Shown here one piece after another: positions 7,961-60,243 of a DNA stretch of 64,000 nucleotides; within the stretch, counting starts at the first letter, position 1; each line of letters begins with the position of its first letter. A program made the translations under genes and the position numbers. Source of the DNA: a virus (lineage: Duplodnaviria > Heunggongvirae > Uroviricota > Caudoviricetes); IMG/VR virus record IMGVR_UViG_2851938318_000001; one strand, given 5' to 3'. Below the pieces are notes generated by a model. The model saw only the letters and a list, made by a program, of their open reading frames with translations. It searched no databases and was not told the DNA's origin.

Positions 7961-8847
7961 TGCCACTGCTGGATAAGCTGCGTGAGCAGTACGGGGTCGG
8001 ACCGGTATGCAGCGAACTGCATATTGCCCCGTCAACGTATTACCATTGTCAGCAACAGCGACATCATCCGGATAAACGCAGTGCCCGTGCGCAGCACGAC
8101 GACTGGCTGAAGAGAGAGATACAGCGCGTATACGATGAAAATCATCAGGTGTACGGTGTGCGTAAAGTCTGGCGTCAGTTGTTACGGGAAGGAATCAGGG
8201 TGGCCAGATGTACAGTGGCACGTCTCATGGCGGTTATGGGACTTGCCGGTGTTCTCCGGGGTAAAAAGGTCCGTACGACCATCAGCCGGAAAGCCGTTGC
8301 CGCAGGCGACCGCGTAAACCGTCAGTTCGTGGCAGAACGACCTGACCAGCTGTGGGTGGCTGATTTTACTTACGTCAGCACATGGCAGGGCTTCGTCTAT
8401 GTGGCGTTTATCATTGATGTGTTTGCCGGATACATCGTGGGGTGGCGGGTCTCATCGTCTATGGAAACGACATTCGTGCTGGATGCGCTGGAGCAGGCGT
8501 TGTGGGCCCGTCGTCCGTCTGGCACCATCCATCACAGCGATAAAGGCTCTCAGTATGTGTCACTGGCCTATACGGAGCGACTAAAAGAAGCCGGATTACT
8601 GGCATCAACAGGGAGTACAGGCGACTCGTATGACAACGCGATGGCTGAGAGCATCAATGGTCTTTACAAAGCGGAGGTAATACACCGTAAGAGCTGGAAA
8701 AACCGTGCAGAAGTGGAACTGGCCACACTAACGTGGGTGGACTGGTATAACAATCGACGATTGCTGGGAAGGCTGGGCCATACTCCTCCGGCAGAAGCAG
8801 AAAAAGCTTATTATGCTTCCATCGGAAACGATGATCTGGCAGCCTGA
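7957..8847 (+). CDS. IS3-family transposase OrfB (DDE catalytic domain)
   Basis: 296-aa ORF in the -1 frame relative to OrfA. Confidence 0.85.
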
Positions 8848-19572: not shown

Positions 19573-20463
19573 TCAGGCTGCCAGATCATCGTTTCCGATG
19601 GAAGCATAATAAGCTTTTTCTGCTTCTGCCGGAGGAGTATGGCCCAGCCTTCCCAGCAATCGTCGATTGTTATACCAGTCCACCCACGTTAGTGTGGCCA
19701 GTTCCACTTCTGCACGGTTTTTCCAGCTCTTACGGTGTATTACCTCCGCTTTGTAAAGACCATTGATGCTCTCAGCCATCGCGTTGTCATACGAGTCGCC
19801 TGTACTCCCTGTTGATGCCAGTAATCCGGCTTCTTTTAGTCGCTCCGTATAGGCCAGTGACACATACTGAGAGCCTTTATCGCTGTGATGGATGGTGCCA
19901 GACGGACGACGGGCCCACAACGCCTGCTCCAGCGCATCCAGCACGAATGTCGTTTCCATAGACGATGAGACCCGCCACCCCACGATGTATCCGGCAAACA
20001 CATCAATGATAAACGCCACATAGACGAAGCCCTGCCATGTGCTGACGTAAGTAAAATCAGCCACCCACAGCTGGTCAGGTCGTTCTGCCACGAACTGACG
20101 GTTTACGCGGTCGCCTGCGGCAACGGCTTTCCGGCTGATGGTCGTACGGACCTTTTTACCCCGGAGAACACCGGCAAGTCCCATAACCGCCATGAGACGT
20201 GCCACTGTACATCTGGCCACCCTGATTCCTTCCCGTAACAACTGACGCCAGACTTTACGCACACCGTACACCTGATGATTTTCATCGTATACGCGCTGTA
20301 TCTCTCTCTTCAGCCAGTCGTCGTGCTGCGCACGGGCACTGCGTTTATCCGGATGATGTCGCTGTTGCTGACAATGGTAATACGTTGACGGGGCAATATG
20401 CAGTTCGCTGCATACCGGTCCGACCCCGTACTGCTCACGCAGCTTATCCAGCAGTGGCATCAT
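19573..20463 (-). CDS. IS3-family transposase OrfB
   Basis: 296-aa ORF identical to the copy-1 OrfB. Confidence 0.85.
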
Positions 20464-20786
20464 TTTTTCCAGAGGCGGTCGAACTCCGCCTTCGCAAAAT
20501 AAGCGGAAGCCTGGCGAAGGATATCGTTACTGCGGCGCAGTTCACGATTTTCACGTTCCAGCTCTTTCAGACGCTGACGTTCAGCGCTGGTGAGCCCACC
20601 ATCACCGCCCCCGGTATCCCGCTCATGCTGGCGAACCCAGACACGCAGAGTCTCCGGCGTACAGCCAATCTTTGGGGCAATGGAACAAATTGCCGCCCAC
20701 TGTGAGTCATATTCATCCTGACTTTCCAGAACCATACGAATCGCCCGCTGACGGACTTCGGGGGAAAAACGAGTATTTTTAGTCAT
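20460..20786 (-). CDS. IS3-family transposase OrfA
   Basis: 108-aa ORF identical to the copy-1 OrfA. Confidence 0.85.
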
Positions 20787-46452: not shown

Positions 46453-46974
46453 ATGGTTAAAGACATCACCTACGGCATACCGGCTGAAGTCTGGCCGCGA
46501 GACTACGAACATGCTGAAAACATACTTATGTTCTGGCGGAAGAACAACATTCCTGTAAGAGTCACGCTTGAAGACGGTCAGGTGTTTTGCATGTACGTTC
46601 AGGGGACAATGCCTTCCCGCAATAAGCTAGATTTATGCCCGCTTCCATATGATAAAGAAAATCGTATAAGACTCCCACTTGAGCGCATTAGCACAATTGA
46701 ATCAGGTGTAATCGATGGCATTGCTCGCGAGTTCAAAGGTAGGCTAACAATACATCCAGACTATGTTGACAATCAGCCATCACGCCGTGACTTTTTTGCG
46801 ATATGTCGCAAGGCTTATCAAAACGACCAATCTATAAGGGTCTACATGGCAGACGGTCGTGAAATAGAAGGGGTGTCAAGAGGCGTTGATGCTTGCCAGG
46901 TCACTCTTAAGTTAGAAGACGGCAGAAAAATACTTGTTTTCTTCGATTGGGTTGAACGAATCCTTCCTTTTTAA
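46453..46974 (+). CDS. hypothetical protein with an internally duplicated domain
   Basis: 173 aa; two similar halves (IPVRVTLEDGQVF / IRVYMADGREIEGV). Confidence 0.4.
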   Translation: MVKDITYGIPAEVWPRDYEHAENILMFWRKNNIPVRVTLEDGQVFCMYVQGTMPSRNKLDLCPLPYDKENRIRLPLERISTIESGVIDGIAREFKGRLTIHPDYVDNQPSRRDFFAICRKAYQNDQSIRVYMADGREIEGVSRGVDACQVTLKLEDGRKILVFFDWVERILPF

Positions 46975-47920: not shown

Positions 47921-47942
47921 TTAATGGAATCAAGCGCCCACT

Positions 47943-48193: not shown

Positions 48194-48421
48194 ATGGTTA
48201 TTTTCATCTCTGGCGTAAATATCAATAATCATACTCTTGTTTATGATATTGCTGGTTTAGCTGGATATGCTCTAAGTTCTGAAGTGGTTGATGAAACAAC
48301 GTTTAAAATAAACATCAATGACGTAGAACATAGAGCGCGCGTAGGAATCAATGAAGCTGATGTTACTTTAATGCTTCAAGAATTTTTAAACGCTGGCTTT
48401 AATATTCACTTAGAAAAATAA
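48194..48421 (+). CDS. hypothetical small protein
   Basis: 75-aa ORF followed by a strong terminator. Confidence 0.35.
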   Translation: MVIFISGVNINNHTLVYDIAGLAGYALSSEVVDETTFKININDVEHRARVGINEADVTLMLQEFLNAGFNIHLEK

Positions 48422-48428
48422 AAACAAT

Positions 48429-48453
48429 AGCGCCCACTATGGGCGCTTTTTTT
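48429..48453 (+). terminator. rho-independent terminator closing the plus-strand accessory genes
   Basis: Hairpin agcgcccactatgggcgct followed by a T7 run; a second hairpin cgcgccaatgatggcgcg plus T-run lies at about 48476..48500. Confidence 0.6.
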
Positions 48454-48736
48454 CGTTTCCAATACTCCCACCATAACGCGCCAATGATGGCGCGTTTTTT
48501 ATTGTCTTTAACTCACTCCAACAACATAAAAATAAGCACCAAAATAACGCCATAGACGCGCTTTTATATCCTTGCCAGTACATACCCATTACTTAACACA
48601 TTAACGCGCTTAAAACGCGTTATAGCGCATAGTTAATCATTGGCTTTTAGTCTTGCTATGTAATCCGCGTTTAATTGTCGGCGCGGATCGGCATTTTGTG
48701 TTGTTCTGTATCCGCTCGCGTATTATGTGCGCGTGA

Positions 48737-49020
48737 TTTTTCACATAATCACACCACTTAATCACGTATGTGATTACGCTACGAAAGAAATCTGGATGTC
48801 TCAGGCGACGAAAGTCATCATAATTTTCCCCGCTCGCCTGTCCGACAACCGCTGGTTGGATTCCACCAGCTTCCCGATGTTTTTTCTACACAAAGGCGAA
48901 TGCAGCCGTTTCCCGAAAAAATCCTGGCCGTTCCCCGTCGGCTCATGAATACGTTCCTCGCCGTTTCTGAAAATTTCCCTGCGGCAGCTGGTGGCTATAG
49001 AGAAAGGGCCGTTTCTGGCC
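48737..49020. repeat. iteron-like direct repeat cluster 1 with a DnaA-box-like site
   Basis: GCCGTT(T)CC cores at 48905, 48927, 48960 and 49008 (22-, 33-, 48-bp steps); TTTTTCACA at 48737..48745. Confidence 0.5.
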
Positions 49021-49030
49021 CTCTTCTCAG

Positions 49031-49513
49031 TTACACGCCATCAAGGATGTGGATGCGGTTGCTTGCGTATACATTCAGCATAAAGTTAGCGCAAAACAGT
49101 TTCCATGTGTCAACGCCAGCGGTATACGTAATATTTTTGCATTTAATTGCATTGTTGGCGATCCGCATCCCCTGCGATACTGCTTCATCGTCGGAAAATT
49201 TGAACGACGATTGAGTTTTAATCCAGACAGAAATCTGCGTAGCGAACTCAATCAGCTTGGACTGGCAGAATCGCCCGGAGCGCACCGGAAAGACGAACGT
49301 TCCGAATCCAGAATTTACCACATACGCTTTCTCAAATACCCGCGAGTAACGACGATTACCAATGATGTCACGTGCAATAATGCATTTTTCTTGTGCTGAC
49401 AGTTCTACCGTCTCATTGTCGCGCCATGCACCAAGTACTCGTTTTTCAATGTCAGAGAACGTTACAGCGATATTGCCATGTGCGGGTGCGTTTACAGTAG
49501 CGATAAAATTCAT
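49031..49513 (-). CDS. hypothetical protein (early small-gene array)
   Basis: 160-aa ORF; conserved AAACAA-N-TTGTTTTCTT element at 49535..49570 upstream. Confidence 0.45.
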   Translation of the reverse strand: MNFIATVNAPAHGNIAVTFSDIEKRVLGAWRDNETVELSAQEKCIIARDIIGNRRYSRVFEKAYVVNSGFGTFVFPVRSGRFCQSKLIEFATQISVWIKTQSSFKFSDDEAVSQGMRIANNAIKCKNITYTAGVDTWKLFCANFMLNVYASNRIHILDGV

Positions 49514-49717
49514 GATTAATTCCTTATCGTAAATAACAAATTGTTTTCTTGTTGTTGTTAATTATCGCTGTACGAATAAGGCGTCAAAGTTGAAAACTAC
49601 GGTAGCCGGACGGGAACAGGTGGGTTTGTCGGTTGCCTGGAGGTAAGAGGTTGGTGTTTTTAGCCTGCGGGAAACAAGATGGTCATTTAAGGCCACCAGC
49701 ATTGGTGGCCTTATTCT

Positions 49718-49999
49718 TTAGTGGAGTAGAGCGATGTCGATGGTATCCCCTGAATCATCCACACGGATCATCAGCATGGCGAAGGCGTTTAGTGGATAAC
49801 TGGCGTGCCATTCAGGGAAGCGGTCATCTCGCATGAAGTCAGCAATGTCGTAAACGCAGCCCTCAAAGTGGAAGAATCGCGTGCTTACCTGCTCGTCATA
49901 ATCCACATGATCCATTTCTTGCTGTTCTGTTTCCGGCAAGTCCAGCCATGATTCGAGGAATACATTTTGTGCTTTGGTGGTAATGGTGAAATCAGTCAT
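49718..49999 (-). CDS. hypothetical small protein (array member)
   Basis: Start at second Met (49999), 7 nt after AGGA; N-terminal 19 codons lie in a 57-bp repeat shared with 50482..50540. Confidence 0.45.
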   Translation of the reverse strand: MTDFTITTKAQNVFLESWLDLPETEQQEMDHVDYDEQVSTRFFHFEGCVYDIADFMRDDRFPEWHASYPLNAFAMLMIRVDDSGDTIDIALLH

Positions 50000-50191
50000 G
50001 AGCATATCCTAACTGCGTAAACATGTTGTTTTCTTGTTGGTGTAATTATCGCAGTGTAGATAAGGCATAAAAGAAGTTAATACAGGCTGAATACGCAAGA
50101 AAGGTTCTGGAAGTTGATAGCTAGGTTTCAAACTAACCTTCGGTTATTAAAAGTCATTTAAGGCCACCAGCGTTAACTGGTGGCCTATATC

Positions 50192-50469: not shown

Positions 50470-50730
50470 TTAATGCGGCAAAGCCAGCCATGATTCGAGG
50501 AATACATTTTGTGCTTTTGGGGTAATGGTGAAATCAGTCATCGTGCCCCCCATCTCCTGCAACTGTGCAACGGTGATATCTGGACACAGCCCGTCGATCC
50601 ACACCCACACGTCAATGATGCTGTCACCGGCTTCAAAATGGTGAAATGCGCGCTCAAGCTGCTGATTGTTATCCACAGGCTCATTTGCTAGCTGCGCCCA
50701 GATTTGCTGGACTTGAGTAATAGTTTTCAT
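50470..50730 (-). CDS. hypothetical small protein, apparently chimeric
   Basis: 86 aa; last 24 codons (TMTDFTITPKAQNVFLESWLALPH) are a copy of the N-terminus of the 49718..49999 product; SD AGAGGA upstream. Confidence 0.45.
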   Translation of the reverse strand: MKTITQVQQIWAQLANEPVDNNQQLERAFHHFEAGDSIIDVWVWIDGLCPDITVAQLQEMGGTMTDFTITPKAQNVFLESWLALPH

Positions 50731-50843
50731 CTGCTTTCCTCTTGTTTTCTTGTTGTTGTAATTATCGAAGTTTAGATAAGGCAGAAAATAAATTGTTATC
50801 GGGCATAAGAAAATGGCGCGGTTTACGCGCCATTCAAAGAGGA

Positions 50844-51365: not shown

Positions 51366-51707
51366 TCAGGCTATTGCCATCACTGATGCTCTCTGAATTT
51401 CTTGCTGGGCCACGCGGTTAACTTCCATCAAAGCCAGTTCGAGCTGATGTTCCGGCCACATTCTTTGAAATGCCACCCAGCCTTTTCCACGCTGGCGGCG
51501 AACATTCATTACATAACGAGTAAAGGTGTTTTTATCGAAAGACACCGCGGTTTCACGGAACAGACGAATAGAGGTTCCATTGGCAACGATGTCCAGCAAA
51601 GTTAATTGAGCAACCAGTGCAGGCTTCTCTTTTCTCTTCTGGTCTTTGTCCAGACCAAGAACCAATGATTTTTTCATCACAACTCCGTAAACAACTTGTT
51701 TTCTCAA
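51366..51707 (-). CDS. hypothetical basic protein
   Basis: 113-aa ORF; conserved upstream element at about 51700..51720. Confidence 0.35.
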   Translation of the reverse strand: MRKQVVYGVVMKKSLVLGLDKDQKRKEKPALVAQLTLLDIVANGTSIRLFRETAVSFDKNTFTRYVMNVRRQRGKGWVAFQRMWPEHQLELALMEVNRVAQQEIQRASVMAIA

Positions 51708-51830
51708 TGGCGTAAATAATACCAGTAAGAAAACGGCTACAAAGCATATTGATCAGGTGCATGAGCGATATGCAGGTTCTTCCCTGCGGCTACAGATTAA
51801 GTTAAGCCAGCAATGCTGGCTTAGATTGGT

Positions 51831-52181
51831 TTACGCGAATACCTCAAGAAACTCCTGAACGTCCCAATGCTGGACGAGGTGAAGATAGACCTTAGAAATC
51901 ACGTCATTCTCGCTATCGCATGTGAAGTAGTACTTCTGGCTGCGGTTGTATGTGTCCACACAAAATTCGCTCATATCCATAAAGTCAGCATCTTCACCCA
52001 GGTCGCAAATCATCAAAGCAGGTGCGTCATCACGAGTCATCAGCTCAAGCACCCACCGCGAATTGATCAGAGTGGAAGACCAACCTTCTAACTCATAAAA
52101 CTGATCAAACTCTTTTTGAGTTAATTTCTTGATTTGGTTGATGTCGATATGTGCAAACATAAAGCAATCCTTAAACAACAT
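51831..52181 (-). CDS. hypothetical acidic protein
   Basis: 116-aa ORF; conserved upstream element at 52176..52210. Confidence 0.4.
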   Translation of the reverse strand: MLFKDCFMFAHIDINQIKKLTQKEFDQFYELEGWSSTLINSRWVLELMTRDDAPALMICDLGEDADFMDMSEFCVDTYNRSQKYYFTCDSENDVISKVYLHLVQHWDVQEFLEVFA

Positions 52182-52334
52182 GTTTTCTTGTTGGTGTTAT
52201 TATCGTAATAACGCACAGGCGAAAAAGGATTTTATTCCGGTGAATGTGGTTTTGGCAGTGAGTTTTCAGGTTCAGTACCGAGTACACTTTTTACATTATT
52301 CTGATTTAGTGGCCGAAGGTGGCTGGTGGACAGA

Positions 52335-52652
52335 ATAATCCTCTCCCCGAAAACCTACTGAAATCGATTGTGACCCGCTGACTGTCTGGCACAATTACGC
52401 TGTAGCTGGGCATTCAGAGGGAATCCAGCGGTAAGCAAGTCCGCCTGCACGTGAGCGCCTCTCTTCTTCCCGCACATTGCAGGTGGGTAGCCGCAACTCT
52501 CCCTCTCGCTATACCGGTACGCCGCCGTTCCTGAACCGGCATTGAGCCTTTTCCCGAAATCCACACAGGCAACTCGACCGTTTCCCTGAAAACCTCCAGC
52601 CGTTCCCAAAGGCAACCCAGCCGTTTCTGTAGCGGGATGCAGCCTTTCCCCT
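52335..52652. repeat. iteron-like direct repeat cluster 2
   Basis: GCCGTT/GCCTTT cores at 52524, 52546, 52578, 52599, 52620 and 52642 (mostly 21-22-bp steps); related ctccccgaaaacc at 52335. Confidence 0.55.
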
Positions 52653-52789
52653 GTATGGACCGAAGGCTGACCGTAGGGGTGTTACGGGGGATAAAATCAG
52701 GAGTTGAATAAATACGAAAAAGGAGGCGACCCCCCTCCTTCCCTCCCCACTTATACATACCTGGCTTCTTCGCTATACATGTTGTGTTT

Positions 52790-53560
52790 TCTTCGTGTTT
52801 TATCTGTCTCAACCTCTCTATAGGCGTTAATGCTCACACCTTCCAGAACGTTCTATACGGCGACTAATTCTGTTGGTGAATTGGGTGTGTTGTTCTCTCT
52901 GTCGGTGTAAATGGTTTCGTTAGTTTTGCGGTGGTTCTTCTGTGGGATGTTCTCGTCGTTTTGGTGATTGTTCTTCTCCGTGTATGGAGTAAAGGCAGGT
53001 GGGCGATTCCTTTCGTTATTGTGTTTGAGTTGTTTGTCTGGAGTGTGTGAAGGGCTTTTGTAGTTATTCGTGTATTGGGTAATGGCGTTTCCCGTGATTG
53101 TTATGTTTCGTGTCTTTTGGGATTGAGAGAATCCTTGCGGTTACAGGCTTCGTTGGGGTTTCAGTGATTCTGGTGTTTCTTCGCTGTTTGGGTAATGGCG
53201 TGTCGTGGGTATCGCGCGTATGGAAGTTTCGAATTGCCTGTGAAAGTTAGGTTGGTTGTCCGGTAGCCTGCCATAAAGAGGTTGGTTGTTTTTGGAATGG
53301 CATATGTGTTATTTGGTTGTTTTGTTATACCTGAAAATAAGTTGTTTATATGGTTGTGTAACGCAACGGGAGCGATTTTGAGCGTGTGTTTTTGTTGGTA
53401 GTGTGTTTGGTCGTCTGTGGTGAAAATTGGACGCTGTGGCGCTGTCTGCTGCGTAGAATTACGGGTATAAGCAGTGATGTGTGAAAACGTCAATTTTTTA
53501 GACCAAATCGGGTGAAAGCGTTGATGTTTCGTTGATCTGTTATTCAGTTGTTTTCTTATT
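52790..53560. other. ORF-free GT-skewed tract (candidate non-coding RNA or origin-associated region)
   Basis: About 770 bp rich in G and T on the plus strand with short degenerate repeats (gggtaatggcgt twice; ggttggttgt several times); bounded by upstream-element-like sequences at 52787..52815 and 53536..53560. Confidence 0.4.
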
Positions 53561-53690
53561 GGTATAAACAACTATAACCTATTGATATTTAAGGATGTGA
53601 TTGCAGGTATAGAATGGGGGTAGTGGCGATCAACGGATTCTTATAGAAAAGAATCAAATTGTGACCGCCATTATCAATGAGTTGCAACCG

Positions 53691-54260
53691 TTAGTTGTTC
53701 AGATAAACATTTGGAACACGGACGTAGAAGTTCCTGTCGCCGGTAAGTTCCAGAGTAATGTTAATGTCATTACCATTGTCTAGTGTAGCCGTTGCTCTAT
53801 AGAACTTATCCGTCACCTTGTCCTCTATTGTCACCTTCATACATTTTGGTGCAGTCGAACCGTTATTCTCTTTCAGAATAGTTGTCACGAGAGGGCAGGC
53901 TGCTTCTTCAAGAGCAACCTCGTCCTTGTGTGGGATGCCGATGAAGATAACCCAAGCCAGCGACGCAACGATTATGATAAATGGCACTCTGCTGCCTTTT
54001 GTAATAGTCGCGCGCTTCCAGAGATAGACAGGCAGGAGGAATACCCCCCATAGAATTGAAGGTGGTTCACAGCCAGACTCCGATAGAGCCATTCTGTCAG
54101 CTACTAACAAACCGATGGTAGTTACACCCCCAATTATAATAGCGTAATTGGTATACTCTTCCGGCGATACTCCAAAGAAGAAAGGCATGAACGCTAGAAT
54201 CCACGCATAAATGTTATTCAGAGGTTTTGTTTGTTGGTTCTGGGTTTCCATCACATCCAT
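53691..54260 (-). CDS. hypothetical membrane protein
   Basis: 189 aa; about four predicted TM helices then a soluble C-terminal domain. Confidence 0.45.
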   Translation of the reverse strand: MDVMETQNQQTKPLNNIYAWILAFMPFFFGVSPEEYTNYAIIIGGVTTIGLLVADRMALSESGCEPPSILWGVFLLPVYLWKRATITKGSRVPFIIIVASLAWVIFIGIPHKDEVALEEAACPLVTTILKENNGSTAPKCMKVTIEDKVTDKFYRATATLDNGNDINITLELTGDRNFYVRVPNVYLNN

Positions 54261-54413
54261 TCCATCACATAAAAATCGCGTTTATATATTATCAATTTTC
54301 TCACTTGTATAACCTAAATACGCATCCGTTTATCAATCCACCTTCCACAAACATCAGCTTTAGCTATGAAAAATAACAATCTCAAAGTGAAAACCATTAT
54401 CATAGGATAACGA

Positions 54414-54599
54414 TTAGATGAGATGGTCTAATTCATCATCTATCATTGCTTTAACACTTGAGTCATTAACCCCGTATTGATTTATGAACCGTTTCAGCTC
54501 CGGTGAAAACTGAAGGTAGATATCGTGAGCGTTTTTCACTGTAGGTTCAACGCCACGCATTTCAAGCGCCTTTAGTAGATATGAGTCTTCTTTAAGCAT
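54414..54599 (-). CDS. hypothetical small protein
   Basis: 61-aa ORF. Confidence 0.3.
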   Translation of the reverse strand: MLKEDSYLLKALEMRGVEPTVKNAHDIYLQFSPELKRFINQYGVNDSSVKAMIDDELDHLI

Positions 54600-54944: not shown

Positions 54945-55042
54945 TCCAAAACAAGTTGTTTTCTTATGTGGTTTATTATCTCCATCAACAAAAGGCAGAA
55001 AACAAATTGTTTTAGGTACTGTGTAAATCAGAAGGGATTGTG

Positions 55043-55096: not shown

Positions 55097-57130
55097 TTAC
55101 TTAACCTGGTGGCCAGGTTTAGCACCAGCATCCGGGCTTAACAGGAAGATATCTTTCCCGCCGGGGCCAGCAGCCATCACCATGCCTTCAGAGATACCGA
55201 AGCGCATTTTACGTGGTGCCAGGTTAGCCACCATAATGGTGTGACGACCAATCAGTGCCTGTGGATCTGGATAAGCGGAACGGATGCCTGAGAAGACATT
55301 ACGCTTTTCACCACCGAGATCCAGCGTCAGGCGAAGCAGTTTGTCAGAACCTTCTACAAACTCTGCGTTTTCAATCAGCGCCACGCGCAGGTCAACTTTG
55401 GCGAAGTCGTCAAAGGTGATAGTTTCCTGAATCGGGTCGTCAGCCAGTGGGCCAGTTACCGGTGCGGCTGTGGCTTTCACTTCTTCTTTGGATGCTTCCA
55501 CCAGTGCTTCAACCTGCTTCATATCGATGCGGTTATACAGTGCCTTGAACGGATTCACTTTATGGCCCAGCAGCGGTTGCTGGATACCATCCCAGGTCAG
55601 TTCTGTATTCAGGAATGCTTCTGCACGTTCAGTCAGTTTCGGCAGTACCGGCTTCAGGTACGTCATCAGCACGCGGAACAGGTTAATGCCCATAGAGCAA
55701 ATCGCCTGCAGATCGGCATCGCGTCCTTCCTGCTTCGCCACCACCCACGGAGCCTGTTCATCGACATAGCGGTTAGCCAGGTCAGCCAATGCCATGATTT
55801 CACGGATAGCTTTACCAAATTCGCGGCTTTCCCACGCTTCACCAATCACTTCAGCGGCATCAGTGAAGGTTTTGTACAACTGCGGGTCAGCCAATTCGCT
55901 TGCCAGCACGCCGTCAAAACGCTTGTTGATAAAGCCCGCATTACGAGAGGCCAGGTTAACCACTTTGTTCACGATATCGGCATTCACGCGCTGAACGAAA
56001 TCCTCCAGGTTGAGATCGATATCATCAATGCGCGAAGAGAGTTTCGCAGTGTAGTAGTAACGCAGGCTGTCGGCGTCAAAATGATTCAGCCAGGTGCTGG
56101 CTTTAATAAAGGTGCCGCGAGACTTGGACATCTTCGCGCCGTTCACCGTCACATAGCCGTGAACAAACAGGTTGGTCGGCTTGCGGAAGTTGCTGCCTTC
56201 CAGCATGGCAGGCCAGAACAGGCTGTGGAAGTAAACAATATCTTTACCGATGAAGTGGTACAGCTCGGCGGTGGAGTCTTTCTTCCAGTATTCATCGAAG
56301 CTGGAGGTGTCGCCGCGTTTGTCGCACAGATTCTTGAAGGAACCCATGTAGCCAATCGGCGCGTCCAGCCAGACGTAGAAATATTTGCCCGGTGCGTTCG
56401 GAATTTCAAAACCGAAGTACGGCGCATCGCGGGAGATATCCCACTGTTGCAGACCAGATTCAAACCACTCCTGCATTTTGTTTGCCACCTGCTCCTGCAA
56501 CGCACCGCTGCGGGTCCATGCCTGCAACATTTCGCTGAAAGAAGGCAGATCAAAGAAGAAGTGTTCGGAATCACGCATTACCGGCGTAGCACCAGAAACT
56601 ACCGATTTCGGCTCGATCAGTTCAGTAGGGCTGTATGTCGCGCCGCAGACTTCACAGTTATCGCCGTATTGATCCGGCGCTTTACATTTCGGGCATGTGC
56701 CTTTCACAAAACGGTCCGGCAGGAACATGCCTTTTTCCGGGTCGTACAGCTGAGAGATGGTGCGGTTTTTAATAAAACCGTTCTCTTTCAGGCGAGTATA
56801 GATAAGCTCGGACAACTGACGGTTCTCTTCGCTGTGCGTCGAGTGATAGTTGTCATAGCTGATGTTAAAGCCTGCAAAATCAGTCTGGTGTTCCTGACTC
56901 ATTTCGCCAATCATCTGTTCCGGTGTGATACCAAGCTGCTGTGCTTTCAGCATGATCGGTGTGCCGTGGGCATCGTCGGCACAGATGAAATTAACCTCGT
57001 GGCCGCGCATTCGCTGGTAACGAACCCAGACATCAGCCTGGATGTGCTCCAGCATATGGCCGAGGTGGATTGAGCCGTTAGCGTACGGCAGCGCGCACGT
57101 CACCAGAATTTTCTTCGCGACTTGGGTCAT
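55097..57130 (-). CDS. metG: methionyl-tRNA synthetase
   Basis: 677 aa from [26 protein letters not shown] (HIGH motif), KMSKS motif present; the 720-aa track ORF has an N-terminal extension upstream of the real start. Confidence 0.95.
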
Positions 57131-57287
57131 AGTAGGCATTACTTCTTTGTAGTGAAAAGGGGCTTGATAGTAACAAAATGGCCTTATGTCTGCCATGTGA
57201 TAACAGCATTTCTCATAAATGATTAAATGCCGTAGCTGGAGTACACTACAAGGCGACAATTGCGCAAATTAAAATAAAGGAGACGGG

Positions 57288-58388
57288 ATGAGCGAGTCCA
57301 AATCGCCGGATGCCCTGAGAGCAATGGTAGCCGGTACGCTGGCTAATTTTCAGCACCCAACCCTGAAACACAATCTGACTACGCTTAAAGCGTTACACCA
57401 TGTTGCGTTGATGGATGACACACTGCATGTCGAACTAATCATGCCTTTCGTGTGGAATAAGCCTTTTGAAGACCTGAAAGAGCAATGTAGTGGTGATCTG
57501 CTCCGTATCACTGGCGCAAAGGCTATTGACTGGAAGCTGTCGTACAACATTGCCACGCTTAAGCGCGTCAAAAACCAACCAGGCATTAATGGCGTGAAGA
57601 ACATTATCGCCGTCAGCTCAGGCAAGGGCGGCGTTGGTAAATCCTCCACGGCGGTAAACCTGGCACTGGCGTTGGCTGCTGAAGGTGCGAAAGTTGGTAT
57701 TTTGGATGCCGATATCTACGGGCCATCAATTCCAACCATGCTTGGCGCGGAAAACCAACGTCCAACCTCACCGGACGGTACTCACATGGCACCGATTATG
57801 TCTCATGGACTGGCAACCAATTCAATTGGTTATCTGGTAACTGACGACAATGCGATGGTGTGGCGTGGTCCGATGGCGAGCAAGGCGTTAATGCAGATGT
57901 TGCAGGAAACTCTATGGCCTGATCTGGACTATCTCGTTCTCGATATGCCGCCGGGTACTGGTGATATTCAGCTGACGCTGGCGCAGAACATTCCTGTAAC
58001 TGGTGCTGTTGTGGTAACTACGCCGCAAGATATCGCGCTGATCGATGCGAAGAAAGGCATTGTGATGTTCGAAAAAGTCGAAGTGCCGGTACTGGGTATC
58101 GTCGAAAACATGAGTGTGCATATTTGCAGTAACTGCGGTCATCACGAGCCAATTTTTGGCACCGGTGGCGCACAGAAGCTGGCCGAGAAATACAACACGC
58201 AGTTGTTAGGCCAAATGCCACTTCATATCTCTCTTCGTGAAGATCTGGATAACGGAACACCAACCGTTATTAGTCGTCCAGATAGCGAATTTACGGCTAT
58301 TTATCGTGACCTCGCAGATCGCGTTGCTGCCCAAATGTATTGGCAAGGTGAAGTAATACCTGGCGAAATCGCATTCCGCGCAGTGTGA
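57288..58388 (+). CDS. apbC: iron-sulfur cluster carrier ATPase Mrp/ApbC
   Basis: 366 aa; deviant Walker A SGKGGVGKSS; CxxC near the C-terminus; divergent from metG as in E. coli. Confidence 0.9.
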   Translation: MSESKSPDALRAMVAGTLANFQHPTLKHNLTTLKALHHVALMDDTLHVELIMPFVWNKPFEDLKEQCSGDLLRITGAKAIDWKLSYNIATLKRVKNQPGINGVKNIIAVSSGKGGVGKSSTAVNLALALAAEGAKVGILDADIYGPSIPTMLGAENQRPTSPDGTHMAPIMSHGLATNSIGYLVTDDNAMVWRGPMASKALMQMLQETLWPDLDYLVLDMPPGTGDIQLTLAQNIPVTGAVVVTTPQDIALIDAKKGIVMFEKVEVPVLGIVENMSVHICSNCGHHEPIFGTGGAQKLAEKYNTQLLGQMPLHISLREDLDNGTPTVISRPDSEFTAIYRDLADRVAAQMYWQGEVIPGEIAFRAV

Positions 58389-58414
58389 TAAAAAGGTGGT
58401 GCAATGCACCACCT
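58389..58414 (-). terminator. rho-independent terminator after the UmuD'-like gene
   Basis: Hairpin aggtggtgca-t-tgcaccacct followed on the minus strand by TTTTTAT. Confidence 0.5.
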
Positions 58415-58425
58415 AAACAGTTCTC

Positions 58426-58815
58426 CTACATCACAGGACAATCATCAAACTCGCCACTTCTTGCGTCGTTGATAATGTGAGTGATCACACCAAACACGGC
58501 ATTGCTGCCCGTGCATCCATCATCATCCTTTGGCAATGCTTCCTTCTTACCAGTTCTTAAATCCTCCAGATGCTGACGTGGATACTTCCGGTATCTTTTT
58601 ACGCGATATTCCCCATCCAGAGCACATACAAGAAGAGATCCATCAACAGGAGTGAGTGAGGAATCGACCACCAGCAATGCACCCTGCAATATTCCCTCAC
58701 GATGATGGCTGTCTGCCGCCCTCATGAAGTAGGTCGCTGAAGGATGTCTAATTATCTGCTGATCAAGAGAAATACGGCTCTCAGCATAATCCGCCGCAGG
58801 AGAAGGGAAGCCCAT
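58426..58815 (-). CDS. UmuD'-like S24 peptidase-fold protein (lacks the N-terminal arm and Cys-Gly cleavage site)
   Basis: 129 aa starting MGFPSPAADY, matching the start of processed UmuD'; conserved Ser (AADS) and Lys (YRVKRY); in-frame TAA four codons upstream of the ATG; SD AGAGG. Confidence 0.65.
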   Translation of the reverse strand: MGFPSPAADYAESRISLDQQIIRHPSATYFMRAADSHHREGILQGALLVVDSSLTPVDGSLLVCALDGEYRVKRYRKYPRQHLEDLRTGKKEALPKDDDGCTGSNAVFGVITHIINDARSGEFDDCPVM

Positions 58816-58831
58816 AATACTCGCCTCTTAA

Positions 58832-58851
58832 TACTGTATATACATACAGTA
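58832..58851. promoter_or_regulatory. LexA box (SOS operator)
   Basis: TACTGTATATACATACAGTA: perfect CTGT-N8-ACAG palindrome just upstream of the SD and ATG of the UmuD'-like gene. Confidence 0.75.
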
Positions 58852-59477
58852 TATGTTGAAGCTATATATTTTTGAACTCTATCTCTTAAAAAAGATGTTA
58901 ATAAGATGCTAACTATTGAAAGGCATAAATATATACAATTCCAACAAACGTTATTTTTAACAAATTTTTTCTCTCTGTTGACTTTTGCGAAAGCCTTGTC
59001 TGGCCTAAATTGCGCGGAAGCTACTTTTTCCTTCCTGAGTTATCCACAGAGTTATGCACTTGCATGCATAACCTATACACACTATCTTAATTCGCAAGAC
59101 ACTGATGTTGCGGTATTGAAGGTTCATTGGGTTAAAAATAGACATTAAAAAGCCCAGTTGACTAGGCTGGGCTTTTTAAAAGGAAACAGAGTTTGCGGCT
59201 CTGTTCCTGAGCCATAAGTATCTGGCGACTGAATTAAGATTAACCGAATGTACTGGATTCATCAAGAAACGTTGAGTGGTCATACCAGGTAATAATGACC
59301 ATTTACTAAACATCGTTGTTCTCAAAGAAGATTTAAGTCCAGGTTTTTGGTGACTCTAAAACCTTACCTTAACTCGAAATCGTGCCGTAAGTATCTGGCG
59401 ACTACAGATATTGCAACTGCAAAGGCAAGCCCAAAGGTATTTGCAGCTAGGCGCGATAAAACTAAGTGAGGCCTGTT

Positions 59478-59561
59478 ATGGTTAACTTACTGTTCAAAAT
59501 CGTGCCGCCGATGTTCGCGATTATCAAAGCGATCATTGAGTACGTAAACCAGCGTCCATAA
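59478..59561 (+). CDS. small hydrophobic peptide (27 aa), candidate small membrane protein or type I toxin
   Basis: ATG 59478 with GTGAGG 7 nt upstream; MVNLLFKIVPPMFAIIKAIIEYVNQRP; terminator hairpin after the stop; too short for the ORF track. Confidence 0.35.
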   Translation: MVNLLFKIVPPMFAIIKAIIEYVNQRP

Positions 59562-59574
59562 CGCTAGTTGCTAC

Positions 59575-59608
59575 AGGCCCCATCAAGAGCATGGGGCCTC
59601 TTTATCGT
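59575..59608 (+). terminator. rho-independent terminator
   Basis: Hairpin aggcccca-tcaagagca-tggggcct followed by CTTTAT. Confidence 0.5.
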
Positions 59609-59616
59609 ACTATTGC

Positions 59617-60243
59617 TTATTTTTTACGGACTGAGTTGTTCACTGCTCTGGCAATCTTCTCCCGCAATTGCTGCGTTCCGTGGTACTGAACCGCAATATC
59701 TCTCAACTCGTTCACCAGTTCTCGAATCTGGTGATCTTTAAGCTCATTATTTGGGTGATGGGTAACAACTCTGGTTAATTCACCCTTGTCTTTTGCTCTT
59801 ACGTATGCAGCTCTTGTGCATTCGACCCATGTATTACCGCCTACATTAACTTCGTAGATTAGGCTGGACTTATCTGTCAATTCGGAACAAATACGGGCCG
59901 TGGTCTGGCAACTAGAGCATTCGCAGTTATCGCGGAAACCGTGATCTACCGGTCGAGAAAGAGGTTTAACTTTTTCATCCAACTTCATCACAGCATCGTG
60001 ATAAGCGTTCCAGCCGTCATCTTTACCAAGTTGATAAATCTCTGAAGGCTCCATGTAGTCTATATCGCAACCTTCTTCATCCGATCTATCTGGTCGCTTC
60101 CCTGGTAATCGCTCATAAAAACGATTTCTGTCTCGACGTTCGGCTCTCAGTGCTAACGCAAGAAGTTGCTCAAGCGAGGTATTTGCACCAGCAATAATTT
60201 CATTGAGAATATCTTCTGTGAGATCTTTCGCTACCGTGCTCAT
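59617..60243 (-). CDS. hypothetical prophage protein
   Basis: 208-aa ORF with several Cys pairs (CECSSC). Confidence 0.4.
   Translation of the reverse strand: MSTVAKDLTEDILNEIIAGANTSLEQLLALALRAERRDRNRFYERLPGKRPDRSDEEGCDIDYMEPSEIYQLGKDDGWNAYHDAVMKLDEKVKPLSRPVDHGFRDNCECSSCQTTARICSELTDKSSLIYEVNVGGNTWVECTRAAYVRAKDKGELTRVVTHHPNNELKDHQIRELVNELRDIAVQYHGTQQLREKIARAVNNSVRKK

Follow-up and report, generated by a model that had tools for sequence, protein, structure and literature searches.

Iteron origins and copy-control arrays (P1 oriR/incA, F, R6K and RK2), and origins that are activated by transcription or primed by RNA, are among the described systems closest to the locus reported here. The locus resembles the iteron systems in that its left array consists of 5–6 direct repeats about two helical turns apart. 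Also, a second related set lies in the opposite orientation some hundred bp off, and the region holds no gene and occurs once on the replicon. On the other hand, the tract lacks a rep gene beside it, an AT-rich unwinding element and DnaA boxes, and its repeats are unrelated to the RepA iterons of the same element. We know of no iteron origin with a 0.7-kb keto/amino-skewed spacer. Among RNA-based origins, those of cluster A mycobacteriophage prophages use an origin RNA which is expressed in lysogens and needed for maintenance (PMC7157519). In contrast, the locus of the SSU5-type tract is silent.

The window (the whole 64-kb stretch of DNA analysed) comes from pRM9131-1, a 117-kb E. coli plasmid and a phage-plasmid of the SSU5/Cyrano type. 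Such elements are common and carry resistance and virulence cargo. The RepA replicon is the only one recognised so far in them. In pRM9131-1, repA and its iterons (ccactatagagag type) are located at 1–1056 and 116.4–117.1 kb of the record, 45 kb from the tract, and the iterons are unrelated in sequence to the tract repeats. Therefore, the tract was rejected as the plasmid oriR/incA. The plasmid itself encodes a DnaB-like helicase, primase, dnaE, ligase and rnhA. A literature search found no paper on the tract region or on the lytic origin of SSU5-type elements. The best explanation of our results is that the tract is the centre of a conserved, non-coding and cis-acting module of about 1.2 kb (approximately 52460–53690). 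From its sequence features, we tentatively suggest that it may be a lysogeny-silent, transcription-activated second (lytic) zone of replication initiation and control, which is possible rather than probable.

Results

The features of the region are as follows.

52322–52329, plus strand: Chi site GCTGGTGG at the left edge of the gene-free gap, kept in 18 of 30 homologues.
52460–52660, minus strand: mirrored array of 5–6 GGGAAA(C/A)GGC(TGG) motifs, spaced by about 20–31 bp, mostly about 22 bp.
52707–52750, minus strand: G-run block (GTGGGGAGGGAAGGAGGGGGG) merging into an intrinsic terminator (stem 52743–52716, then TTTTT).
52750–52757, no strand: left arm of an inverted repeat, CTTATAC(A) on the plus strand here (7 of 8 positions) and CTTATACC in the SSU5 type.
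52751–52815, minus strand: cassette of the E. coli lineage (GATAAA −10, CA-rich leader) with an ATG and the 9-codon ORF MYSEEARYV-stop (52780–52751).
52830–53460, no strand: core skewed tract, non-coding, G+T-rich on the plus and C+A-rich on the minus strand.
52974–53001, plus strand: 28-nt unit 1 (TTCTCCGTGTATGGAGTAAAGGCAGGTG), degenerate, carrying a GTAATGGC-type motif.
53064–53091, plus strand: 28-nt unit 2, with an exact GGGTAATGGC at 53077.
53177–53204, plus strand: 28-nt unit 3, with an exact GGGTAATGGC at 53190.
53236–53295, plus strand: two tandem 30-nt units (GCCTG..A.AG.GGTTGGTTGT), with GGTTGGTTGT exact at 53250 and 53280.
53288–53305, plus strand: degenerate fourth motif copy, TTGGAATGGCAT here and GGGTAATGGC in most homologues.
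53304–53345, no strand: leader-like dyad, degenerate here, 84% identical to 53535–53559.
53464–53471, no strand: right arm of the inverted repeat, 8 bp, GGTATAAG on the plus and CTTATACC on the minus strand, overlapping the −10-like hexamer.
53465–53493, minus strand: promoter-like element directed into the tract, with an A-tract, TTGACG (53493–53488), a 17-nt variable spacer and TTATAC (53470–53465).
53488–53536, no strand: cluster of GTTGAY/RTCAAC hexamers (CGTCAA at 53488, GTTGAT at 53520 and 53531).
53532–53567, minus strand: degenerate promoter and CA-rich-leader cassette, with AAGAAAACAAC at 53547–53557 invariant, the −10 decayed and no ATG.
53624–53670, minus strand: conserved dyad/hairpin directly downstream of the variable upstream gene, with outer arms TGGCGATCA and TGACCGCCA and, here, the inner stem GATTCTT/AAGAATC.

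The G+T fraction on the plus strand of 52830–53460 is 0.70–0.71, the extreme of the whole 117-kb plasmid, and the minus strand is composed of 39% A, 31% C, 17% U and 13% G. Over 52830–53545 (A119, C95, G220, T282), G+T is 0.70, the GC skew is +0.40 and the AT skew is –0.41. In 200-nt windows across 52900–53500, the GC skew runs from +0.43 to +0.50 and the AT skew from –0.31 to –0.57. All 700-nt windows of the 64-kb stretch have a mean G+T of 0.501 (sd 0.030). The peak of 0.713 at 52851 is about 7 sd above this mean and the 12 highest windows all fall in the tract, which confirms the GT-skewed tract claimed in a sequence-only reading of this DNA. On the CA-rich strand, the mean C minus G is +20 per 100 nt (range +12 to +28) over 620 nt, and 15 of 26 windows exceed the 99.5th percentile of the 117-kb plasmid. 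The skew is equally strong outside the recognisable repeats (G+T 0.72 vs 0.70 inside), and the GC content of the gap is 0.42–0.57. The GC skew flips its sign at about 52780, because the region to the left (52460–52660) is G-rich on the minus strand. Among young within-clade variants, the per-site rates were 0.102 for keto to amino and 0.097 for amino to keto. As these rates are symmetric, the skew is not driven by mutation, and mutational bias was ruled out as its origin. The counts (199 keto-to-amino vs 87 amino-to-keto) give a net flux toward loss of the skew. A replication-driven skew from oriR was rejected by inference, since the polarity is opposite to the keto enrichment of a leading strand.

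The gap is conserved in phage-plasmids of E. coli, Salmonella, Klebsiella, Enterobacter, Citrobacter, Cronobacter and Kluyvera. A G+T fraction of 0.63–0.74 is kept in every clade at only 57–67% between-clade identity. The skew is present in 44/44 homologues found by DNA pattern; a search by way of a neighbouring protein yielded 70 loci, about 60 of which have it. Thus, both the tract and its strand skew, on whose conservation the sequence-only reading had made its proposal depend, are conserved in related elements. Column conservation is 0.7–0.95 over 52500–53685 vs roughly 0.45 in the right-flank gene, and the genes on either side are less conserved than the gap. Matches to the module were found in 825 PLSDB plasmids, and 239 of 5426 complete E. 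coli genomes have it, in each case on a plasmid. All of the 103 recovered tracts have the same orientation relative to both flanks. Cyrano and SSU5 are reported to share 81% identity genome-wide. The between-clade identity of the tract is lower than this, so constraint is weak at most positions, which counts against an origin. Natural deletions also exist. Variants L138 and L086 lack the right ~550 nt and the promoter block, and L133 lacks the whole region; the L138 deletion arose by recombination at the promoter/leader cassette. Therefore, the module is dispensable, at least for persistence, and this too counts against an origin. An independent occurrence in large Klebsiella IncFIB plasmids was rejected, because that copy begins abruptly at an IS3-family transposase fragment; it is a captured piece of a Klebsiella phage-plasmid with DUF262/RM neighbours. 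No paralogous copy of the tract was detected in the 64-kb stretch by blastn.

The gene-free gap containing the tract is approximately 1.5 kb long, and all neighbouring genes read on the minus strand. A Pfam/PHROGs search of the neighbouring proteins yielded no DNA-binding candidate. RefSeq annotates nothing in the gap of this plasmid and of relatives in six genera, where PGAP calls no gene, and the tRNA/tmRNA search of the region was negative. The record of Cyrano has the hypothetical CDSs CYRAN_103 and CYRAN_104 in the tract, and that of SSU5 has different ORFs, SSU5_108 and SSU5_109. The ORF at 53161–53571 (minus strand, 136 aa) is the only one of at least 100 aa within the tract. It had been called both sole and spurious. 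The second judgement is borne out by a frame that is not conserved, but the first overlooked a 50-aa ORF at 53098–53250 (plus strand) and a 132-aa ORF at 52414–52812 (minus strand) that overlaps the left edge of the tract. No ORF in the gap is conserved, small ORFs included, and the positions and frames of open frames differ among homologues. Stop codons are rare and long open frames appear in every frame because T and G are scarce on the CA-rich strand. Variation shows no 3-nt periodicity; of 250 indels, 157 have lengths not divisible by 3, and those of 1 nt are common. The tract is non-coding.

Rfam 15 gave no match in the region at its gathering threshold, which only two IS3 ALIL pseudoknots elsewhere passed. 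The best E-values within 52000–54500 (0.21 and 0.75) fall short of the threshold, and matches up to E 10 are at chance level only; RNAI and related families matched elsewhere only and sub-threshold. The fold z-scores are –1.2 for the minus strand and +2.4 for the plus strand, which folds worse than all 20 shuffles. The minus-strand RNA has an MFE of –6.2 kcal per 100 nt vs –21.8 ± 6.7 for random plasmid windows. In 120-nt windows on both strands, RNAalifold gives a structure conservation index of no more than 0.39 and practically no covariation. These folding models predict that either strand would be almost structure-free if single-stranded. Of the candidates suggested earlier, a long non-coding RNA of a structured form is not supported by these values, and a single-strand initiation region of the hairpin type is contradicted by them.

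In the published strand-resolved RNA-seq of LF82/Cyrano, the ORF covering about 53215–53571 has a log2(fpkm+5) of 2.32 (FPKM 0) in both LB replicates, a value that applies to the right-hand portion of the tract in lysogens grown in LB. The ORF at the same locus is barely over the floor in macrophages, and the gene just upstream of the tract reaches 5.6–9.2. Therefore, a lysogenic long non-coding RNA is unsupported, and the earlier view that the minus strand is probably transcribed is not supported for this portion in LB lysogens. Transcription of the upstream gene stops around the dyad at 53624–53670, falling from log2 5.6–9.2 to the floor. The dyad has no U-tract, and its arms are invariant without covariation.

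In 30 non-redundant homologues, the TTGACG and TTATAC hexamers of the promoter-like element are invariant and the spacer is variable. The TTGACG-17-TTATAC element is unique in the plasmid. TTATAC is a weak –10 because A is missing at –11 (or T at –7 in an alternative register), and a consensus promoter scanner makes no call on the element, which counts against an origin activated from it. The GTTGAY/RTCAAC hexamers form direct and inverted repeats around the –35, and by sequence 53488–53536 is a candidate operator or protein-binding block. Its column conservation of 0.92–0.96 is partly inflated, since the search pattern was drawn from the same block. A dispersed operator family was rejected because the motifs of this right block occur nowhere else in the plasmid. 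The arms of the inverted repeat are 699–761 bp apart in all homologues. Their variable position pairs as CG in 17, UA in 3 and UG in 1, and is never unpaired; one double change is found, in the Klebsiella clade. At the far end, the G-run block has a hairpin of terminator quality in the E. coli and Klebsiella lineages. It is weak in the SSU5 type, which again counts against an origin.

Copies of a conserved upstream element had been placed at both flanks of the tract. The family is real and the flanks are promoter-like. It is a cassette of about 69 nt, composed of a promoter and a CA-rich leader, before at least six small minus-strand genes, and AAGAAAACAAC has 12 matches vs 2.2 expected. However, the copy at 53532–53567 is degenerate, and that at 52751–52815 is an insertion limited to the E. 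coli lineage, absent in the SSU5, Klebsiella, Enterobacter and Cronobacter types. With a column conservation of 0.24, the left copy is outside the conserved module.

The repeat pair previously placed at about 53069 and 53181 was verified as exact GGGTAATGGCGT at 53077 and 53190, within 28-nt units, and a third, degenerate unit was found at 52974. This unit 1 is the most conserved part of the tract (column conservation 0.90–0.92). Each tract has 4–6 GGGTAATGGC motifs, all on the same strand; GTAATGGC has 4–7 plus-strand copies in every homologue and 0 minus-strand copies within 52830–53460. The GGGTAATGGC spacings of 41–142 bp show no helical phasing, which counts against an origin, and a search for phasing or bending gave just a weak ~11.5-bp TT signal and a 31–32-nt lag. 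Two of four claimed ggttggttgt-like copies are the exact GGTTGGTTGT at 53250 and 53280, and the other two are merely loosely similar. Cyrano and SSU5 have three 31-nt units in place of the two 30-nt tandem units, and a related pair lies at 49616–49661 beside a working promoter/leader cassette. The leader-like dyad reads GTTGTTTTC-N8-GAAAACAAC in the SSU5 type.

The left array (52460–52660), with 5–6 direct repeats of one motif mostly ~22 bp apart, exceeds the three helically spaced repeats required of an iteron origin. Together with the tract motifs, it is described by the joint motif GGG[AT]AA[ACT]GG[CT], which forms two divergent arrays (11 sites in L002 vs 0.35 expected). RNA pairing between the arrays was rejected by hand, because one or two central U.U or A.A/C.A mismatches are always present and no compensating change occurs. 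Since no clean pairing is possible, a shared DNA-binding motif is more likely. Two further candidates failed. A Chi-like decoy was rejected because Chi-like octamers are only at shuffle level. CGGTAGCCTG in the 30-bp repeat resembles the RfaH ops element at 8/10 positions, with about 0.6 such matches expected by chance (by hand); as ops it would serve plus-strand transcription only, and no promoter was found for that strand.

Discussion

The proposed lytic origin would not be the same as the RepA/IncFIB plasmid origin, which lies at a distance of 45 kb. Read along the minus strand, the module begins with the dyad/hairpin ending upstream transcription, followed by the unique operator-like block with the promoter-like TTGACG-17-TTATAC, which is off in lysogens. 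Next come about 0.7 kb built, on each strand, almost entirely of non-pairing bases (C+A on one, G+T on the other), with the same-orientation GGGTAATGGC sites, the 30-bp repeats and the 8-bp inverted-repeat bracket. The G-run/terminator block and the mirrored, ~22-bp-spaced, iteron-like array complete it. Upon induction, firing of the promoter would activate the origin by transcription and/or prime synthesis at the G-run block, together with the RNase HI that the element encodes. Some phage-plasmid protein could occupy both divergent motif arrays. The pairing-incompetent tract would then offer a long stretch of single strand, free of hairpins, on which the DnaB-like helicase, primase and Pol III alpha encoded by the element could act. 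The data show the conservation, the non-coding nature, the architecture, the lysogenic silence, the lack of structure and the absence of a mutational bias able to create the skew; protein binding, promoter induction and any replication role are what we infer.

A transcription-activated origin is a viable model, and judging from the repeat architecture it would be the best fit. No other intergenic region near the helicase, primase, dnaE, ligase and rnhA genes has a repeat array, which counts for an origin here. As in R-loop origins, a G-run block (52730–52750) is conserved on the transcript strand and rnhA is present on the plasmid. The promoter-like TTGACG-17-TTATAC element is conserved, with FPKM 0 in lysogens. 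A structured primer RNA with an antisense regulator was not found. Several points count against an origin. No initiator gene adjoins the tract and no ORF in the gap is conserved. An AT-rich unwinding element is absent across the gap, with one 13-mer-like site at 2 mismatches, and no DnaA box, IHF box or GATC cluster in the gap is conserved across clades. Moreover, Rho should terminate on a 0.7-kb untranslated leader with C>G before RNA polymerase reaches the G-run block.

We consider another reading somewhat unlikely. The element TTGACG-17-TTATAC may drive, leftward and in the lytic phase, an unstructured CA-rich non-coding RNA of about 0.7 kb. Being untranslated, C-rich, G-poor and unfolded, it would work through RNA-binding factors, as a very long rut zone or attenuator gating read-through to the downstream cassettes, or as a decoy or sponge of Rho or of a protein recognising GCCAUUACCC. 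A conserved promoter-like element aimed into the tract, a far-end terminator in the E. coli and Klebsiella lineages, and the C excess (+20 per 100 nt over 620 nt) with an MFE of –6.2 kcal per 100 nt are consistent with such an RNA. So is one short motif in 4–6 copies with a single orientation and irregular spacing, as in sponge RNAs. Also, an FljA-like RNA-binding protein (PF03614, E = 5e-81) is conserved and encoded 6 kb from the tract. However, the tract shows no likeness to the fliC 5'UTR, the known FljA target, and mimicry of that binding site was rejected because the alignments score no better than shuffles. Lysogens give an FPKM of 0, and YC dimers are not enriched (12.7 vs 11.1 per 100 nt). 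Hfq-type ARN, AAnAAnAA and ACA (MazF) motifs are at shuffle level and not beyond composition. A Rho terminator requires about 100 nt, not 700, and the 53624–53670 dyad already stops upstream transcription. The RNA would leave unexplained the mirrored minus-strand left array and the inverted-repeat bracket, one arm of which is within the promoter and hence untranscribed.

A DNA scaffold for a nucleoprotein complex that does not initiate replication is a further candidate, which we regard as unlikely. The scaffold could be a centromere for the type Ib ParA system, a packaging/recognition site or a looped regulatory region, with the skew as a by-product of, or an aid to, oriented binding. The two divergent motif arrays and the 30-bp tandem repeats suit it, and the fixed-spacing inverted repeat with a lineage-specific concerted change fits a single binding site present twice. 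Lysogenic silence is compatible with a DNA site. The plasmid encodes a ParA-like ATPase and a 119-aa partner, an IS abuts the par promoter, and no obvious centromere was found beside these genes. On the other hand, no tract motif is found near the par operon, and the terminase genes, with their own 475-bp upstream gap, are 14 kb from the tract. Binding sites alone are insufficient, as the skew is equal outside the repeats, and 0.7 kb of pairing-incompetent sequence is not something that a centromere or an operator usually requires.

A duplex of about 0.7 kb that is incompetent for pairing, with almost only G+T on one strand and C+A on the other, and gives long hairpin-free single strands on demand could be maintained by selection on its base composition as such. 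These might serve as a new type of initiation zone for the helicase/primase/Pol III set that the element encodes or, equally, as a decoy RNA capturing Rho or another host factor in lytic growth. We consider such selection quite unlikely. To our knowledge, neither a pairing-incompetent initiation zone nor a structure-free decoy RNA has been described for phage-plasmids.

Alternatively, the region could be a functionless relic in which duplicated promoter/CA-rich-leader cassettes have accumulated with intergenic repeats and decayed, and whose leader-derived composition is slowly eroding. Degenerate cassette copies at 53532–53567, 53304–53328 and 52751–52815, the relative of the 30-bp repeat at 49616–49661 beside a working cassette, a between-clade identity of just 57–67%, the net flux toward skew loss (199 vs 87) and the deletion variants all point in this direction. 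However, the region is more conserved than its flanking genes, with blocks of 0.85–0.96 and a length of 699–761 bp, and is kept in seven genera and 239/5426 complete E. coli genomes. Real leaders are about 20 nt long, and the 64-kb stretch has no blastn paralogue of the tract. Furthermore, symmetric mutation demands an ancestor at about 0.76–0.78 G+T, which itself would need explanation. We consider a relic decidedly unlikely.

The remaining explanations are far weaker. Proteins encoded in the tract, as annotated in Cyrano and SSU5, are very improbable: the ORFs at 53161–53571 (136 aa) and 52414–52812 (132 aa) on the minus strand and the depositors' hypothetical CDSs are outweighed by unconserved frames, the lack of 3-nt periodicity, frequent 1-nt indels, the absence of PGAP calls, FPKM 0 and a TTG start that lies upstream of the two promoter-like elements. 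A regulatory RNA with a defined structure, be it a riboswitch, a ribozyme or an antisense regulator, or a single-strand initiation/primosome site of the hairpin type would suit a conserved non-coding region with promoter-like flanks, but is highly improbable and largely refuted by the lack of an Rfam match, fold stability at or below shuffle level, the structure conservation index of ≤0.39 and the absence of lysogenic expression. A fimS-like invertible promoter switch or miniature transposable element marked by the 8-bp inverted repeats is barely credible, since the bracketed ~710-bp promoter-containing segment has the same orientation in 103/103 tracts, lacks a target-site duplication and is single-copy in each plasmid.

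The tract region is the largest conserved non-coding region of SSU5/Cyrano-type phage-plasmids and is left unannotated by RefSeq. Two phage records mis-annotate it as hypothetical proteins, and annotators should cease to call ORFs there. If the lytic origin or control region is true, it would be a handle for mapping induction, for building vectors and for explaining incompatibility or interference between co-resident phage-plasmids. If the decoy RNA or the Rho-loading zone is true, it would be a new device of host takeover.

Finally, the locus can be set beside known systems. Like rut regions and Rho-dependent attenuators, the tract transcript would be untranslated, unstructured and richer in C than in G, over 620 nt where at least 80 nt are required, and then meet a pause/terminator hairpin. 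However, the tract is about seven times the needed length, A+C-rich rather than pyrimidine-rich and not enriched in YC, and it has conserved sequence-specific repeats. It shares with sponge RNAs (CsrB/RsmZ, CrcZ) a single motif recurring in one orientation at irregular spacing over a few hundred nt. In contrast to theirs, its motif is not in hairpin loops and matches neither the GGA nor the A-rich Hfq/Crc motifs, and no expression is seen in the sampled conditions. We know of no binder of the repeated motif GCCAUUACCC. The T4-type PeSL elements and the lambdoid 'boundary sequences' are mobile promoter cassettes, and the likeness is to the upstream element and not to the tract. Both concern a promoter-and-leader unit (~69 nt here) repeated before many small accessory genes in a hyperplastic region, but they have no known sequence relationship to the ~69-nt cassette. 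As for ColE1, its RNA II is highly structured and has the antisense RNA I, whereas the tract RNA would be unstructured and no antisense partner was seen. R-loops along the tract are disfavoured because its RNA is C-rich. With the transcription-activated and RNA-primed origins as a group (P1 oriL under the C1-repressed P53 promoter, lambda ori, ColE1 RNA II and the T4 R-loop origins), the locus shares, in its promoter-like element, a promoter that would be off in lysogens and aimed into a non-coding region, a G-run block that ends the leader and an RNase HI encoded by the element.

Source plasmid

The window is the reverse complement of positions 34546-98545 of pRM9131-1 (NZ_CP028430.1; 117,123 bp; IncFIB; Escherichia coli RM9131), with a 100% match. 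pRM9131-1 is an SSU5-family phage-plasmid. Siphovirus structural genes lie in the window, together with a type Ib ParA-like gene and genes for a DnaB-like helicase and a primase. A helicase, a primase, Pol III alpha, a ligase and RNase HI are all encoded by the element itself. Its repA and iterons, the one recognised replicon, lie outside the window, 45 kb away from the GT-skewed tract (core about 52830-53460). The nearest phage record is Escherichia phage Cyrano (= pLF82), at 94% over window 52300-53679. The match to Salmonella phage SSU5 is 65%, and those to Klebsiella phage-plasmids are patchy, at 70-76%.

Other features of the plasmid were also recorded. Host-like metG, apbC/mrp and a umuD-like S24 peptidase gene, present in the E. 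coli-lineage phage-plasmids, occupy window 55097-58815, and a perfect LexA box (TACTGTATATACATACAGTA, 58833-58852) stands upstream of the S24 gene. The 800-bp stretch at 58815-59617 has no annotated gene; it contains a terminator-like hairpin (about 59150-59178) and gave only below-threshold Rfam matches (AgrB, 27.6 bits; RNAI, 23.1 bits). Two ALIL frameshift pseudoknots (Rfam RF01497, 121.5 bits each) at 7915-8031 (plus) and 20389-20505 (minus) mark IS1203/IS3-family copies at about 7634-8847 and 19573-20786, the second amid tail genes; six such copies or more are present in the plasmid as a whole. The ParA-like ATPase (222 aa) is encoded with a 119-aa partner of no known family at 6431-7458 (minus), and an IS adjoins the upstream region, the expected place of a centromere. 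There are 13 Chi sites (GCTGGTGG) in the window and 20 in the full 117-kb plasmid; we estimate the expected number at about 3-4. Its window positions are 7187, 19241, 24956, 27799, 36667, 39537, 44018, 48863, 48987, 49693, 50164, 52322 and 58668, several of them within intergenic spacers of the accessory region.

Conservation and anatomy of the module

The module, the wider non-coding region of about 52460-53690, is conserved and is not a gene. RefSeq carries no annotation at window 52161-53692, nor under the matching stretch of other complete E. coli genomes, and relatives from Escherichia, Enterobacter, Citrobacter, Cronobacter, Klebsiella and Salmonella have a gene-free gap of about 1.5 kb in the corresponding position. 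The depositors of Cyrano and SSU5 annotated ORFs here, but not the same ones. Long open frames arise on the CA-rich strand because stop codons require T and G. Their positions and frames vary from homologue to homologue, the variation lacks a 3-nt period, 157 of the 250 indels have lengths not divisible by three, and no conserved small ORF was found in the gap. Full-length homologues (44) were collected with a DNA pattern and thinned to 30 sequences of less than 97% identity. Column conservation is 0.7-0.95 over 52500-53685 versus about 0.45 in the right-hand flanking gene, whose place is taken by unrelated genes in other clades. The segment 52764-52803, the site of the left cassette copy, is an insertion confined to the E. 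coli lineage. The module is the largest conserved non-coding region of SSU5-family phage-plasmids; blastn found no paralogue of the whole region in the window.

An IS-truncated copy of its right ~750 bp was seen in a homologous locus (L004, 4605-5400) of NZ_CP075882.1 and similar large Klebsiella IncFIB plasmids, accompanied by DUF262 and type I restriction-modification genes of Klebsiella phage-plasmids. This copy shows that phage-plasmid segments were transferred into large conjugative-type plasmids.

Features of the module, read right to left on the minus strand, the direction of all neighbouring genes
53670-53624: conserved dyad, immediately beyond the variable upstream gene's stop codon
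53567-53532: degenerate cassette copy with invariant AAGAAAACAA and no ATG
53536-53488: GTTGAY/RTCAAC hexamers in direct and inverted arrangement
53493-53465, minus: promoter-like element (A-tract, TTGACG, 17-nt clade-variable spacer, TTATAC)
53460-52830: skewed tract, with four to six GTAATGGC (at most one mismatch) on the plus strand only, within a unit of about 28 nt
In the tract: tandem units of 30-31 bp, two here and three elsewhere
In the tract: leader-like dyad
Near 52750 and at 53464: 8-bp inverted repeat bracketing the tract (CTTATACC and GGTATAAG)
52751-52815: cassette copy with an ATG and a 9-codon ORF
52750-52707: conserved G-run block running into an intrinsic terminator
52660-52460, minus: five to six GGGAAA(C/A)GGC(TGG) motifs, mostly spaced about 22 bp
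Outside the module, 49535-49600, 50018-50086, 50734-50802, 51690-51744, 52172-52240 and 54948-55016: cassette copies before small accessory genes

The repeats described in the sequence-only reading are real at slightly shifted coordinates (GGGTAATGGCGT at 53077 and 53190, GGTTGGTTGT at 53250 and 53280), and its conserved upstream element proved to be a genuine family. This cassette of about 69 nt consists of a -10-like GATAAT, a CA-rich leader of about 20 nt without a Shine-Dalgarno sequence, and an ATG. At least six small minus-strand genes have it upstream, and it is reminiscent of the mobile promoter cassettes in T4-type phages. Two adjacent small genes, tandem paralogous accessory genes, have as their 5' ends a shared 66-nt segment (49934-49999 and 50476-50541; 94% identity).

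Invariant hexamers around a varying spacer give the element at 53493-53465 the look of a promoter; a consensus scanner makes no call there, and its -10 is poor. The arms of the inverted repeat are 699-761 bp apart in all homologues. The Klebsiella clade has CTTATATC/GATATAAG, with one change per arm, and one sequence is intermediate. In a 21-row alignment the variable pair is CG in 17, UA in 3 and UG in 1, and it is never unpaired; 12 of 500 shuffles reached the covariation score. This covariation is suggestive and is based on one event. The intrinsic terminator varies in strength, from strong in the E. coli lineage to weak in the SSU5 type; the Klebsiella lineage has it too.

The left-hand and right-hand motifs fit one degenerate pattern, GGG[AT]AA[ACT]GG[CT], with 11 sites in the SSU5 homologue versus 0.35 expected. 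Nearly every left-hand site is on the minus strand and every right-hand site on the plus strand, so that the two arrays diverge around about 52780, the place of the sign change in GC skew. The plasmid has no second copy of the right-hand block. The GGGTAATGGC and GGGAAAMGGC arrays are candidate binding sites of a protein. A second gene-poor gap lies at window 48421-49031; twin hairpins (AGCGCCCAC..GGGCGCT at 47933 and 48429) are tied to it, and the GGRAACGGC motifs that form a small cluster at 48900-48990 are akin to the left-hand array.

Base-composition skew

The GT skew first noticed in the sequence-only reading was borne out. The plus strand at 52830-53545 contains A119, C95, G220 and T282 (G+T = 0.70). 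Over all 700-nt windows the mean G+T is 0.501 (sd 0.030) and the peak is 0.713 at 52851; every one of the 12 top windows overlaps the tract. In 200-nt windows of the tract the GC skew is up to +0.50 and the AT skew to -0.57. The complementary strand has a mean C-G of +20 per 100 nt across 620 nt, with 15 of 26 windows above the 99.5th percentile of the entire plasmid. Conservation of the tract and its skew, proposed earlier as a check, was found in all 44 homologues (G+T 0.63-0.74). The skew was ascertained independently with loci gathered via a neighbouring 160-aa protein, not via the tract: about 60 of the 70 loci with enough flank had a 600-nt window of C+A 0.67-0.75, 2-4 kb upstream of the gene for this protein.

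Tract identity between the major clades is merely 57-67%. Mutation bias was assessed in four clades from their rare variants (103 tracts, of which 64 were unique). There were 199 keto-to-amino and 87 amino-to-keto changes, in agreement with the site ratio, and the per-site rates were 0.102 and 0.097. Therefore, mutation is symmetric and tends to wear down the skew, and mutational bias is ruled out as its origin. That all clades have kept the skew nevertheless points towards selection on composition or an even more extreme ancestor, neither being proven.

RNA folding and expression

No Rfam family matches the module. The minus-strand RNA (871 nt) folds at -137.8 kcal/mol (z = -1.2), and its mean is -6.2 kcal/mol per 100 nt versus -21.8 +/- 6.7 for random plasmid windows. 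The plus-strand RNA folds less stably than 20 of 20 shuffles (z = +2.4). The structure and covariation analysis suggested earlier for a candidate non-coding RNA went against a structured one: RNAalifold in 120-nt windows of the 30-sequence alignment gave a structure conservation index of at most 0.39, with covariation nearly nil on both strands. The tract does not act as folded RNA, whatever its role. Its distinctive physical trait is that self-pairing is impossible for either strand.

Strand-resolved RNA-seq values, as log2(fpkm+5), have been published for LF82, the carrier of Cyrano (PMC9928086, S1 Table). CYRAN_103 (window about 53215-53571) has 2.32, or FPKM 0, in both LB samples and 2.7-4.3 in other conditions (PMC9928086), so that the minus-strand transcript thought probable from the sequence was not seen over this stretch in LB. 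CYRAN_102, directly upstream, has 5.6-9.2 (PMC9928086). The difference indicates that upstream transcription ends at about the 53624-53670 dyad, and the FPKM of 0 that the promoter-like element is off in lysogens.

Discussion

A mechanism for the module has to cover the mirrored oriented arrays, the fixed-length bracket, the silent inward promoter, the G-run/terminator beside an iteron-like array, and a 0.7-kb pairing-incompetent duplex. We tentatively propose that the module is a second zone of replication initiation, used in the lytic phase and activated or primed when the silent promoter is transcribed from; this reading fits more of these features than any other. Once driven, the promoter-like element would activate or prime lytic replication initiation at the module. 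A real difficulty is that the C-rich leader should draw Rho before RNA polymerase gets to the G-run block. Rho on this leader might instead be a safety catch, with the origin kept silent until the promoter is driven hard. The other intergenic regions examined near the helicase, primase, polymerase, ligase and RNase HI genes have no repeat arrays. An AT-rich unwinding element, DnaA boxes, IHF boxes and an adjacent initiator gene were sought at the module and none was found; therefore, it is not of the classical iteron-origin family.

An unstructured CA-rich RNA of the lytic phase, in the role of a Rho-loading zone or protein decoy, seems unlikely. Composition and single-orientation motif repeats agree with it, but there is no enrichment of YC dimers, Hfq-type motifs or ACA sites, and the mirrored array and the inverted-repeat bracket are left unexplained. 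Mimicry of the fliC leader for the FljA-like protein of the element was tested and failed. The gene for this protein, a 'repressor of phase-1 flagellin' (46453-46974, plus; PF03614, E = 5e-81; weak Hfq-like match), is kept in SSU5, Cyrano and Klebsiella phage-plasmids; FljA itself binds RNA and represses translation.

We consider it rather improbable that the module is a non-replicative nucleoprotein site. Such a site accounts for the repeats but not for the skew between them, which is equally strong inside (0.70) and outside (0.72) recognisable repeats.

More doubtful still is a decaying relic of duplicated promoter-leader cassettes. The degenerate cassette copies, the weak per-site constraint and natural variants speak for it: two homologous loci (L138 and L086) have the right ~550 nt and the promoter block swapped for a cassette and a small ORF, the L138 deletion having arisen by recombination at such a cassette, and a third (L133) lacks the whole region. 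However, conservation above that of the flanks, the conserved length and the spread over genera oppose it. Coding, structured-RNA, invertible-switch and MITE readings are essentially excluded.

The module matters because the phage-plasmid family is common: the module occurs in 825 PLSDB plasmids and in 239 of 5426 complete E. coli genomes, plasmid-borne in all cases. No description of it was found in the searchable literature. P1 oriL, lambda ori and ColE1 are comparable transcription-activated origins. The RNA-based prophage origins of mycobacteriophages are a comparable case (PMC7157519). The module does not qualify as a member of any of these systems; what it most resembles is a transcription-activated phage origin with iteron-like arrays.
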